Source: Promethearchaeia archaeon
GTDB lineage: Archaea; Asgardarchaeota; Lokiarchaeia; Sigyniarchaeales; SOKP01
Length of the DNA stretch: 20,878 nt
Direction of reading: 5' to 3'
Assembly (NCBI GenBank): GCA_029856155.1
Contig: JAHQWL010000076.1
Location: 1 to 20,878, forward strand
The translations under genes and the position numbers were made by a program. Under the pieces are notes generated by a model, which was not told the DNA's origin, made no database searches, and worked only from the letters and a program-made list of their open reading frames with translations. This document shows, one piece after another, positions 236-4,188 of this stretch. The number at the start of each line of letters is the position of its first letter. Position 1 is the first letter of the stretch.

Positions 236-502
236 TTAAGCGCTAATCAAACGGAATAATATAGAAGCATGAGGAATAAAGAATTCATCTTTACGTTTGA
301 TGACCACAGTGTGAAAATATTCTGCTAATCCTAAAAAACCACGAATAACTGATTCATCTTCCTCAAATCTAAAAATAACTGTTGCGATTGCAGCTCCTGT
401 ATTAAAATTAACCTTATCATACACTCTTTCGTCAATTAAGGGAATCTTTAGCTCATTAACAATTTCATAAACCCGTTTAATGAATAGTTCTCGCTTAGGC
501 AT
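236..502 (-). CDS. Hypothetical protein, 88 aa, predicted alpha/beta
   Basis: ATG start, normal globular composition, no competing ORF, and a T-tract (A8 at 220-227 on +) just after the stop. No recognisable motif. Confidence 0.8.
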   Translation of the reverse strand: MPKRELFIKRVYEIVNELKIPLIDERVYDKVNFNTGAAIATVIFRFEEDESVIRGFLGLAEYFHTVVIKRKDEFFIPHASILFRLISA

Positions 503-767: not shown

Positions 768-1487
768 GTGGTTTCAAAAGAACAGAAGAAAATTGAACGA
801 GTTATTAATTTCATGAAAAAGGGTTTAACATCTTTAGCTGACGATCTAGAAGAGACTGTTAAGGGGATAAATGACTTTATTAAATCATTAGCTAAAGCTC
901 AGAAAGATTTGAAAGAAGTATCTGTGGTTGAAGAAGTTCAAACCGTAAGCACTTCCTCTAAAAAAATAGTAGCTCCCACAAGTGAGGGGGCTAAAACTGC
1001 CGCTGCTAGCACTTTGTTTAGTCTTTTAAGCAGTACTGGAGGTGCTCCCGTTACTGCTTCAGGTTCAATACCCATACCAACTGCAGCCCCAGTATCAGCT
1101 ATTCCTTCAGCACCTGCCCCTTCTTCTGGAGGTGGGCCTCCAAAAGCACCTAGTTCTGGCCCCCCTAAAGCTCCTAGTGGAAGTCCTCCTAAACGACCTG
1201 GTTTACCACCAGCACCAAAATTGCCCCCTACTAGTGGAGGACCGCCTAAAGCTCCAGGCTCGCCACCCCAAGCACCTCCAGGAGCAGGACCTCCAAAACT
1301 TCCAAGTACAGGAGCACCTTCTGCACCCGCATTCGCAAAAAGACCAGGGTTACCTCCTGGTGGAATTGCTCCTGCCGCTCCCTCTGCTCCAGCTGTGGCA
1401 CCTAAACAAGGTGGAGGGTTAGGTTCGCTCCGTGACGAAATGCTTGACGAATTGAATCGACTTAAGAAGATTATGAGAGGAGAATAG
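768..1487 (+). CDS. Coiled-coil + proline-rich protein with a C-terminal WH2/C-helix/FAB-like amphipathic motif (candidate actin regulator)
   Basis: GTG start after GAGGAA (alternative ATG at 813). Residues ~5-50 show heptad hydrophobic periodicity, ~93-213 are Pro/Ala/Gly/Ser-rich with PPKxP repeats, and the protein ends GGGLGSLRDEMLDELNRLKKIMRGE. The CDS is well supported; the function is inferred. Confidence 0.85.
   Translation: MVSKEQKKIERVINFMKKGLTSLADDLEETVKGINDFIKSLAKAQKDLKEVSVVEEVQTVSTSSKKIVAPTSEGAKTAAASTLFSLLSSTGGAPVTASGSIPIPTAAPVSAIPSAPAPSSGGGPPKAPSSGPPKAPSGSPPKRPGLPPAPKLPPTSGGPPKAPGSPPQAPPGAGPPKLPSTGAPSAPAFAKRPGLPPGGIAPAAPSAPAVAPKQGGGLGSLRDEMLDELNRLKKIMRGE
1134..1358 (+). repeat. 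Intragenic degenerate peptide repeats (G/S)PP(K/Q)(A/R/L)P and KRPGLPP
   Basis: GPPKAP at residues 123, 131 and 158; SPPKRP at 139; SPPQAP at 165; GPPKLP at 174; KRPGLPP at 142 and 191. The first three units have a 24-nt period and differ at synonymous sites (gggcctccaaaagcacct vs ggcccccctaaagctcct). Confidence 0.85.
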
Positions 1488-1519
1488 TCTTTTATCAATA
1501 CGAGCCTAAATTGATTATA

Positions 1520-1527
1520 TTTTTTTT
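1520..1527 (+). terminator. Oligo-T terminator candidate after the proline-rich gene
   Basis: T8 run 32 nt after the TAG. Confidence 0.35.
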
Positions 1528-1768
1528 CTAGTAGTAAACCTATACTATCTTTAGATTTTTTTATAAGTAATATTACCTTTAAATTAAGAAATAATTATGC
1601 ACTTTTTCCATATTGCTTCATAAATCGTATTAGTTATACCTTTAGTTCAGCTCTATATTTTAATTTTTCAAGTTTTTTATTTTTTTCCAATTTATCCATT
1701 CTTTGAATAATCATAATAGAGATTAGATTCAACAAAGTTTTTTTAGGGTTTAGTAAAAATTATATATA

Positions 1769-2515
1769 ATGTTAGAAAATCGCTATTTAATTTGTGAGGA
1801 AGAAATCCCTATTATTGTGCCTAAAAGGATTATGGTTTTTGCTGGCCATCCCGACGATGAGTTAGTATCTTGTGGGGGTACGATCTTAAAATATCAAAAA
1901 CTAGGATCAGAAATTATAATTGTTATCGCTACTTTTGGCTTAGGAGGCTACGCCAAGGAAAAACATAAAGACAATATTGCTAAAAGAAGGAAAAATGAAT
2001 TAGAGCTAGTAAAGAAGTTTTTACAAAGTGAGATTATTGAGTTGGGCTATTCTGATTTACAAATTGATAGAACGAAAATCTCTCGGATTACTAATCTCAT
2101 CCGTGATTATAAACCTCAGGTAATTTTATTACCTCATTATTCAGATTTTCACCGTGTACATCGAAATTTATCATTAATCACACGAGAAGCAATATATCAC
2201 TGCTCTACAGGTAAAGCATATGCGGGACATATGAGGAGTTGGATTCCACTGGGTGTTTATTATTATGAATCTCCATCATGTAAATTTCAATACATAGAAG
2301 GATCTGTTTTTGTTATAGTGAATATAGAAGATTATTGGGAAAAGAAAAAAGAAATTTTTAACCATGTTTATACATCTCAAAAAGAAGTTTTAGAGCGTGT
2401 TTTAGATTGGGCAGAAGATACAGCAATTCTAAGGGGAAATGAAATAAATGCTGCTTTTGGTGAAGCATTTATGCCTGAGACCACATATACTCCATTAAAA
2501 ATTCTATTATTATAA
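1769..2515 (+). CDS. PIG-L/LmbE-family zinc-dependent de-N-acetylase
   Basis: N-terminal VFAGHPDDELVSCGGTI (HPDDE metal motif), RRxEL, IRxYKPxVIL, second His motif DFHRVH, SQ, and C-terminal RG...GEAF. Confidence 0.9.
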   Translation: MLENRYLICEEEIPIIVPKRIMVFAGHPDDELVSCGGTILKYQKLGSEIIIVIATFGLGGYAKEKHKDNIAKRRKNELELVKKFLQSEIIELGYSDLQIDRTKISRITNLIRDYKPQVILLPHYSDFHRVHRNLSLITREAIYHCSTGKAYAGHMRSWIPLGVYYYESPSCKFQYIEGSVFVIVNIEDYWEKKKEIFNHVYTSQKEVLERVLDWAEDTAILRGNEINAAFGEAFMPETTYTPLKILLL

Positions 2516-3843: not shown

Positions 3844-4188
3844 ATGAAGATGGATGAATTTGAAGAAAATAAGTTTTATAAACCAAGTTATTCCCATTTG
3901 TTCAATAGAATTAAGGATATCAAAACACCAATAAAAAATGAAATATTAATTGCCCTCCTCGATGGTCATTGGCATTCTGAATTAGAAATAATAAGAGTTA
4001 CTAAAAGGCAACATGGATTCATTGGAAGTGTTACTTTGGGTACAATGGTAACTTCATTGAATCATTATATAAAAAATAACTATCTGCAGAAGAAGATAGT
4101 GAATGGTAAGCTTTATTATAAGATATCAGATAATTACGTTGGACTTACGAGAGCAGCATATAGGTTTGATGCAAATGATTTTCTTTAA
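3844..4188 (+). CDS. Small hypothetical protein, probable winged helix-turn-helix fold
   Basis: Pattern of helix (PIKNEILIALLDG), short strand/helix (WHSELEIIRV), helix (SVTLGTMVTSL) and beta-hairpin wing (YLQKKIVNGKLYYKIS) typical of wHTH proteins. The fold is inferred by eye. Confidence 0.7.
   Translation: MKMDEFEENKFYKPSYSHLFNRIKDIKTPIKNEILIALLDGHWHSELEIIRVTKRQHGFIGSVTLGTMVTSLNHYIKNNYLQKKIVNGKLYYKISDNYVGLTRAAYRFDANDFL

Follow-up and report, generated by a model that had tools for sequence, protein, structure and literature searches.

A near-invariant C-terminal helix in an unnamed Asgard protein family is most likely a docking module and is not a recognizable WH2, VCA, or VASP motif

Introduction

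What does a short amphipathic helix do at the very end of a proline-rich archaeal protein? The question is raised by a gene for a protein of 239 amino acids (aa) in a stretch of 20,878 nucleotides (the window; contig JAHQWL010000076.1, positions 1 to 20,878 of the forward strand, assembly GCA_029856155.1) from a Promethearchaeia archaeon of the Sigyniarchaeales. An earlier note, made from the sequence alone, had likened the C-terminal end of this protein to three actin-binding elements, namely the WH2 domain, the central helix of VCA regions, and the F-actin-binding (FAB) segment of VASP. The known regulators of the Asgard actin cytoskeleton are profilins and gelsolins only, its nucleation and elongation machinery is not known, and how filaments are nucleated, elongated, and tied to membranes is an open question (PMC9433394; bioRxiv 10.1101/2025.11.30.690169).

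We find that the C-terminal motif is real, modular, extremely conserved, and predicted to be helical, and that, as judged from its sequence, it is not a recognizable WH2, VCA, or VASP motif. The helix is most likely a self-contained, reusable docking module of an Asgard-wide tether family. Both motif and family are undescribed in the literature found: searches with the motif strings LRDEML and RLKKIM returned no paper, and literature on Asgard WH2, VASP, proline-rich, and GTPase proteins held no description of such tethers.

A near-invariant helix at the end of a variable protein

The 239-aa protein is a member of a large unnamed Asgard family, with more than 216 homologs, every one of them labelled "hypothetical protein". 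In an alignment of 39 orthologs (A1; mean column identity 53%), 21 of the 25 C-terminal positions are invariant, while the spacer that precedes them varies freely in both length and sequence, as the alignment gaps show. These last 25 residues (nucleotides 1410-1484; GGGLGSLRDEMLDELNRLKKIMRGE) consist of a Gly linker and a helix. An AlphaFold2 model built on 39 orthologs predicts three helices (residues 4-49, 74-88, and 218-236) with everything between them disordered, and the last of these (nucleotides 1419-1475) is one continuous helix, with a predicted local distance difference test (pLDDT) score of ~90, that contains the tetrapeptide LKKI. Translation bears out the residue numbering given in the earlier note (L221, M225/L226, L229, L232, and LKKI at 232-235), and the amphipathic helix that it saw after a Gly linker is supported, as a functional, strongly conserved element behind a proline-rich arm. 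The note would have counted a lack of conservation in orthologs as a refutation; the alignment speaks decisively against such a lack.

The anatomy of the helix was counted on 78 unique motif instances drawn from all of the protein architectures described below. Their consensus core reads L-R-[DE]-E-M-L-x-E-L-x-R-L-[KR]-x-I-M-[RK]-G. E228 and L232 are present in all 78 instances, L221 in 77, M225 and L226 in 76 each, R231 in 75, L229 in 74, R222 in 72, M236 in 71, and E224 in 70. In total, 13 of 16 core positions are conserved, the charged E224, E228, and R231 among them, and the only variable helix positions are 223, 227, 230, and 234, which form a single stripe. The strict core occurs once in the 4.1-Mb genome versus 0 times in shuffled sequences, and the conservation of the motif far exceeds chance.

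Since only this one stripe varies, some three quarters of the surface of the helix must be under constraint. Together with the 13 conserved positions, this leads us to infer that the helix is deeply buried in a groove or bundle, and its near-invariance across the phylum suggests that the partner is presumably equally invariant. The pattern of substitutions thus points to a helix that would be buried, over most of its surface, in a groove or bundle of a near-invariant partner.

Resemblance to WH2, VCA, and VASP motifs

In one explanation, the tail shares ancestry with eukaryotic WH2, the central helix of VCA, or the FAB segment of VASP and has diverged from it, which would make the protein an archaeal relative of WASP or VASP. 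The order of its elements, with a Gly linker leading into an amphipathic helix and then LKKI after a proline-rich region, is typical of WASP and VASP. Database comparisons did not support such a kinship. With hmmscan, residues 200-239 and 100-239 matched no Pfam family at E <= 10, and at the same threshold the Pfam WH2 model (PF02205) matched neither the 768-1487 locus in a six-frame search of the whole genome nor any of 19 motif variants. Two family profiles, A2 and A4 (A4 being the motif alignment), retrieved no WH2, VASP, WASP, thymosin, or ESCRT-III chain from the PDB at E <= 10; their closest matches, which we judge to be due to chance, were the coiled coils of the DC-SIGNR neck, GCN4, and M protein. 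As a positive control we used a profile of three WASP and N-WASP WH2 sequences (A7, thus covering the WASP family only), made from a WASP WH2 sequence confirmed against PDB chain 2a3z_C (28 of 28 residues) together with N-WASP repeats. This profile retrieved the WH2s of INF2, Vibrio VPA1370, and WAVE from the PDB at E values of 0.0025-0.1. Aligned directly with A7 in hhalign, A4 gave a probability of 0.6% over 6 columns.

The tetrapeptide that had been taken for a WH2 signature does not hold up any better. Lysine occupies position 234 in only 33 of the 78 instances, with LKAL, LKSI, LRNI, and LKQI found instead of LKKI, and position 235 is always I or L and never T or V. In WH2 the corresponding residues form an extended stretch, but no helix-linker-extended LKK[TV] arrangement is found here, as the continuous predicted helix runs through LKKI. 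The resemblance to WH2 is at chance level, because this proteome contains 71 matches to a loose WH2-like pattern, versus ~63 in shuffles, and 274 occurrences of LKK[TVI]. The helical resemblance noted earlier therefore divides in two: the motif itself is well beyond chance, while its WH2 likeness is as frequent as chance would have it. What looks like WH2, the helix with LKKI, is an accident local to a single clade, in a proteome rich in Lys and Leu.

Two further similarities have to be read with their limits. By our own reading of the two sequences, the motif aligns without gaps to 2a3z_C, placing M225-L226-x-x-L229 on LLxxI and I235-x-R237 on the L-x-K of LNKT, which is a curiosity and not evidence. 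The six-residue pattern shared with VASP in the note's gapless match to the FAB segment occurs only once in the proteome, although the pattern was chosen post hoc. Like the EVH2 region of Ena/VASP, the protein has a proline-rich region followed by a short C-terminal helical element; unlike it, the protein carries no EVH1 or other Pfam match, its model has one C-terminal helix where EVH2 has three elements, and its longest proline run is two. As proline runs never exceed this length, there is no classical profilin site. A Pfam scan of the whole protein at E <= 1 gave no EVH1/WH1, VASP_tetra, GBD, gelsolin, or ESCRT-III (Snf7) match, and a scan of the tail at E <= 10 gave no EVH1/WH1 or VASP_tetra match. 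The protein ends in ...KKIMRGE and, like all 39 orthologs, lacks the acidic, Trp-containing tail of a complete VCA, as had been recognized from the start.

WH2 domains (of WASP, N-WASP, WAVE, INF2, and VopL) and the motif do share a general layout: each is a short amphipathic helix after a proline-rich region, occurs singly or in tandem, and is found in GTPase-regulated or membrane-associated proteins, and the spacing of the hydrophobic triad fits LLxxI. They differ in that many more positions are conserved in the motif than in WH2, besides the failed profile comparisons and the helical LKKI. No eukaryote is found among the named matches described below. Taken together, the Pfam, PDB profile, and hhalign results and the variable K234 largely refute a WH2, VCA, or VASP identity at the sequence level, and we consider homology to any of the three very improbable. 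The note's own caveats, that the match could be due to chance and that the helix could serve oligomerization, were sound. The WH2-like look is thus no ground for annotating members of the family as homologous to WASP or VASP.

The only actin-contacting "WH2-like" elements described so far in Asgard archaea are LKKT-type motifs of gelsolins, with the sequences LRRV, LKHV, LVDV, and LKDV (PMC7444086, PMC9433394). These are four-residue extended linkers between domains, in contrast to the stand-alone, 19-residue helix found here on a tether with no gelsolin domain.

Distribution and protein architectures

We scanned 400 Asgard genomes from 85 genera, whose taxonomic families are labelled f1, f2, f3, and so on, with the one described here in f1. 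The tail profile matches 256 of these genomes and 56 of the genera, with one strong motif copy per genome in most of them. Most of 25 distant loci that were fetched contain full-length genes that follow the same plan with differing anchors. In the Loki class and Odin-like lineages the anchor is an N-terminal helix, and in f9, f11, f18, and f31 it is a transmembrane (TM) helix with basic residues and then a helical domain behind it.

From a set of 1.84 billion representative proteins, an exhaustive profile search yielded 71 representatives only. Those with a name all come from Asgard archaea (Hod-, Loki-, Odin-, or Promethearchaeota), and none from eukaryotes. The architectures among the 71 include a Ras/Roc-like GTPase followed by PPPP, the motif, and a Zn-ribbon; 2-3 tandem motifs followed by a Zn-ribbon and a further domain; a GTPase carrying the motif at its C-terminus; an LRV-repeat protein with the motif; and a fusion of TM helix, tether, and TIR domain. 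A language-model atlas held no usable match for the C-terminal tail.

A second, relaxed copy of the motif is present in the same genome, in a 163-aa protein on another contig (C71; L014:1327-1818; FLRDEMINELNNLRDLI). There the motif stands directly before a Zn-ribbon (CPLCGNENH ... CCNCYKNFF) in a protein without a Pfam family, and this unit of motif and Zn-ribbon recurs in other Asgard genomes after Ras/Roc-like GTPases and after the 2-3 tandem motifs. The TIR fusion (P0149, 549 aa, from a metagenomic contig) is a member of the tether family with an added N-terminal TM helix, and it continues for ~300 residues past the docking helix to end in the TIR domain (Pfam TIR_2, 6e-18). In the closed 6.04-Mb genome CP104013.1, which we take to be the chromosome of Ca. 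L. ossiferum B35, an opposite-strand product of 230 aa (L097:2501-3193 (+)) overlaps the correct-strand call of 268 aa (about 729367-730173, - strand). With such a product on record, the ortholog could be hidden from proteomics searches.

Docking in trans or oligomerization

These observations suggest a protein plan in which an anchor is followed by a disordered, proline-rich arm of 100-150 residues and then by the terminal 19-residue helix. The anchor would be the long N-terminal helix in the protein described here, and elsewhere a TM helix with a helical domain or a Ras-like GTPase. We propose that the helix inserts in trans into a groove or bundle on a very conserved cytosolic partner, which would thereby be held near whatever the anchor attaches to. 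Docking in trans and the identity of the docked partner are both what we infer from conservation and architecture. For the joint statement that the helix is a docking element on a tether, acts in trans on a conserved cytosolic partner, and is not a WH2 homolog, we estimate a probability of roughly 55%.

The same pattern of conservation could arise if the helix instead formed a short homo-oligomeric bundle, a trimer or tetramer like the VASP tetramerization domain, that clusters the tethers, with tandem copies folding back on one another. Hydrophobic residues occupy a-, d-, and e-like positions (218, 221, 225, 229, 232, and 235/236) alongside the conserved L226, the restriction of variability to positions 223, 227, 230, and 234 is what a helix buried on most sides would display, the closest chance matches in the PDB were the coiled coils named above, and 2-3 motif copies occur in single chains. 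However, 19 residues is short for a stable coiled coil, and the 45-residue N-terminal helix of the same protein would be better suited to oligomerize. Coiled coils also usually drift while keeping their heptad, whereas E224, E228, and R231 are invariant across the phylum, which points to a fixed outside partner, and it is unusual for coiled coils to keep a Glu invariant at a core-like position. Since most genomes have only one strong copy, association between different motif-bearing proteins is not a general option. On balance we regard oligomerization as unlikely.

A comparable plan is that of ZipA and the C-terminal peptide of FtsZ. These combine a membrane anchor or polymer core with a disordered P/Q-rich linker and a conserved terminal binding element, a filament-to-membrane tether plan that resembles the TM-anchored members of this family. 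The sequences are unrelated, the cytoskeletal system is a different one, and ZipA ends in a globular domain.

An actin-family protein as candidate partner

If the helix docks in trans, the leading candidate for its partner would be Lokiactin or, in family f1, the actin-related protein (ARP) encoded nearby, with the helix lying in a hydrophobic groove in the manner of arcadin-2. Actin leads for four reasons. The partner must have an invariance comparable to that of actin; the build of the protein matches that of arcadin-2; arms rich in proline, coupling to GTPases, membrane anchors, and repeats in tandem all recall actin assembly factors; and no nucleator or tether is known to the field from Asgard archaea. 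Lokiactin itself occurs in almost every family sampled, some without the motif among them, and is 70-80% identical phylum-wide. By these analogies an actin-family protein is a tentative candidate for the docking partner.

The actin link was also proposed from the position of the ARP gene, which lies 1.1 kb downstream of the family gene and whose product is 41-42% identical to the two Lokiactins of this genome. The order of family gene, PIG-L deacetylase gene, and ARP gene is seen in six of six related f1 contigs, except that in two of them the PIG-L gene is missing and the ARP gene is directly adjacent. Proximity of an ARP gene holds in all six f1 contigs examined and in genome G166, and in none of the loci fetched outside f1. 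The genome has five actin-family genes, including the two Lokiactin paralogs (contigs C4 and C26), which are 85% identical to each other. A Lokiactin of this genome is encoded at L002:1474-2616.

In arcadin-2 of Pyrobaculum calidifontis, an unstructured linker joins the core to a conserved C-terminal helix, which binds crenactin in its hydrophobic groove at 31 nM (PMC5173319). The last 17 residues of arcadin-2 alone bind the hydrophobic groove of the actin (PDB 5LY3; eLife 2016, PMC5173319). The 239-aa protein has the same build, in that a disordered linker without conservation separates its core from a C-terminal helix that is small and conserved, and the genes of both stand beside an actin-family gene, which for the 239-aa protein is true in f1 only. 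The two differ in that the arcadin-2 peptide relies on a Trp that the motif lacks, that arcadin-2 belongs to the crenarchaeal arcade cluster, and that the linker here is proline-rich and much longer. The helix here is modular as well, occurring in tandem, internally, fused to GTPases, and on TM anchors. We compare builds and claim no homology.

Several points weigh against an actin partner. The adjacency of the ARP gene is restricted to f1 and is absent in f2, f3, f5-f7, and f27 and from the TM-anchored forms, which rules out ARP as a conserved neighbor across families. The steadier neighbor is an 88-aa protein, here called p88, with no known fold match, and the neighborhoods of the other motif-bearing architectures are without cytoskeleton genes. 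The motif is scarce in some families where Lokiactin is normal, being found in 0 of 6 genomes in f21 and 1 of 12 in f15. Conservation around some three quarters of the circumference exceeds that of typical helices in the actin groove, such as WH2, and the conserved surface would also fit a helical bundle. In the main text on the published L. ossiferum Lokiactin co-immunoprecipitation, profilin, gelsolins, and an Arf GTPase are listed and this protein is not; an opposite-strand product is also on record at the corresponding locus.

A wider proposal is that the helix is the actin-binding module of pan-Asgard actin tethers or assembly factors and arose independently of WH2. We find this rather doubtful, though its consequences are considerable. 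Were it true, the membrane-anchored and N-terminal-helix forms would link Lokiactin, as filaments or as monomers, with membranes or scaffolds, the forms fused to GTPases would connect actin directly with small-GTPase signalling, and the proteins with 2-3 tandem helices, those of Hodarchaeota included, would be tandem-monomer nucleators like Spire, Cobl, and VopL. The family would then provide what the field regards as still undiscovered in Asgard archaea, namely machinery for nucleation, elongation, or membrane linkage. A helix that hardly changes across most of the phylum, and that membrane anchors, scaffolds, and small GTPases carry on proline-rich arms, at times in tandem, is in this respect a testable candidate for a missing link.

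Candidate partners other than actin

The docking helix could also serve a partner outside the actin family, such as a small-GTPase network (a Ras/Roc-like GTPase, the Zn-ribbon protein, or regulators), p88, or ESCRT/Vps4. Fusion of the motif behind Ras/Roc-like GTPases, and its position directly before a Zn-ribbon in many proteins, one of them in this genome (L014:1327-1818), would be consistent with the first of these. A divergent gene for a small Ras/Arf-like GTPase lies 218 nucleotides upstream of the tether gene in one f3 genome (L080:3254-3790 (-) / L041), and an f1 contig has a homolog of it 2 kb upstream (L009:2381-2908). Against a simple pairing in trans of motif and Zn-ribbon, the Zn-ribbon proteins carry a motif copy of their own, and no partner gene recurs beside the other architectures.

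The case for p88 comes from its position. Its gene adjoins the family gene, in varying orientations, in six taxonomic families (f1, f2, f5, f6, f7, and the Odin-like f27), whereas adjacency of the ARP gene is specific to one family. In f3 the two are unlinked. p88 is found in 181 of the 400 Asgard genomes and is single-copy in this one. It is absent, however, from f13, f18, f28, and most of f31, all of which bear the motif, and for this reason p88 cannot be the general partner of the motif. The AlphaFold2 model of p88 (pLDDT 90.5) has one strand pair, two helices, and a three-stranded meander. Foldseek found nothing in the PDB at E <= 0.001, an exhaustive VIA search reached a best Z of 4.4, and p88 belongs to no Pfam family; in a language-model atlas it falls only into its own unnamed archaeal cluster. 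A Roadblock/LC7-like fold, guessed from the order of its secondary-structure elements, is supported by none of these results and was dropped.

For ESCRT/Vps4 the relevant motif would be MIM1, whose consensus is (D/E)xxLxxRLxxL(K/R). Read against this consensus, the motif agrees with it at R231-L232 and I235 alone, whatever the register. No ESCRT-III chain came up in the PDB profile searches at E <= 10, an absence that says little about such a partner. On inspection and these searches together we set the MIM1 reading aside. Weighing these candidates together, we think a non-actin partner improbable as the explanation of the motif. If the partner should nevertheless not be actin, the motif would still mark an undescribed interaction network, specific to Asgard archaea, among Ras-like GTPases, Zn-ribbon proteins, and membrane tethers.

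Neighborhoods of the other architectures

The genes for TM-anchored forms have housekeeping neighbors only, among them a gene that by reading resembles ribose-5-phosphate isomerase and an ATPase gene. The isomerase-like gene (~230 aa) adjoins the motif gene in eight loci from four families (L027, L028, L039, L044, L046, L091, L092, and L094), usually with a P-loop ATPase nearby. In seven of these loci the motif gene is full-length and TM-anchored, and in L091 it is a short C-terminal fragment. This neighborhood is probably shared housekeeping synteny. Around the GTPase and Zn-ribbon forms nothing recurrent was found.

Layout of the gene and its surroundings

The features of the locus are collected in Table 1. 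At the N-terminus, orthologs begin with MVSKEQKK, and the first helix would be a head or anchor, possibly a coiled coil. In the second, K76, A79, A80, T82, L83, F84, L86, and L87 are invariant among the 39 orthologs, and counterparts of this helix are present in Odin-like and other lineages. Two islands of conservation interrupt the spacer. In the first (GLPPAPKLPP), L146, P147, A149, P150, K151, P153, and P154 are invariant in the 39 orthologs, and genomes of f3 have a similar LPxPPK[ML]PP; its conservation makes it a candidate for a second binding site. The second island (PAFAKRP) is replaced in f3 genomes by PSFA[TQ]RP.

Table 1. Features of the family gene and its neighbors, in positions of the window
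Feature	Position	Strand	Basis or remark
p88, 88-aa protein, divergently transcribed	236..502	-	Steadiest companion of the family gene
Family gene, 239 aa	768..1487	+	Intact open reading frame, GTG start; coding 768-1484, stop 1485-1487
Long N-terminal helix, residues 4-49	777..914	+	AlphaFold2, pLDDT ~90; many invariant columns
Second, short helix, residues 74-88, AKTAAASTLFSLLS	987..1031	+	AlphaFold2 helix, low confidence
Proline-rich disordered spacer, GPPKAP-type repeats	1065..1409	+	pLDDT ~45-60, no secondary structure
Conserved island GLPPAPKLPP in spacer, residues 145-154	1200..1229	+	Alignment
Conserved island PAFAKRP, residues 187-193	1326..1346	+	P187 invariant; A190 and K191 at least 90%
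Gly linker, C-terminal helix (residues 215-239), and stop	1410..1487	+	Translation, alignment, AlphaFold2
T8 run, 33 nucleotides past the stop of the family gene	1520..1527	+	Read from the sequence
PIG-L deacetylase	1769-2515		Downstream of the family gene
Actin-related protein (ARP), 373 aa	2609..3730	+	Pfam Actin, 9e-90

The T8 run resembles the oligo-T tracts that act as transcription terminators in archaea, which suggests that the family gene is probably not co-transcribed with the genes downstream. Between the ARP gene and a topoisomerase gene lies a gene for a 114-aa protein without a Pfam family (3844-4188 (+)). It comes after the ARP gene at all f1 loci examined, with products that are 51-67% identical. 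The spacer is rich in proline, glycine, and alanine codons, and these account for a spike in GC content at window positions 1001-2000 (0.40, versus 0.24-0.32, or about 0.29, in the other segments). The GC-rich proline tract also opens other reading frames, giving rise to two shadow frames that overlap the family gene, at 938-1498 (-) and 1042-1422 (+).

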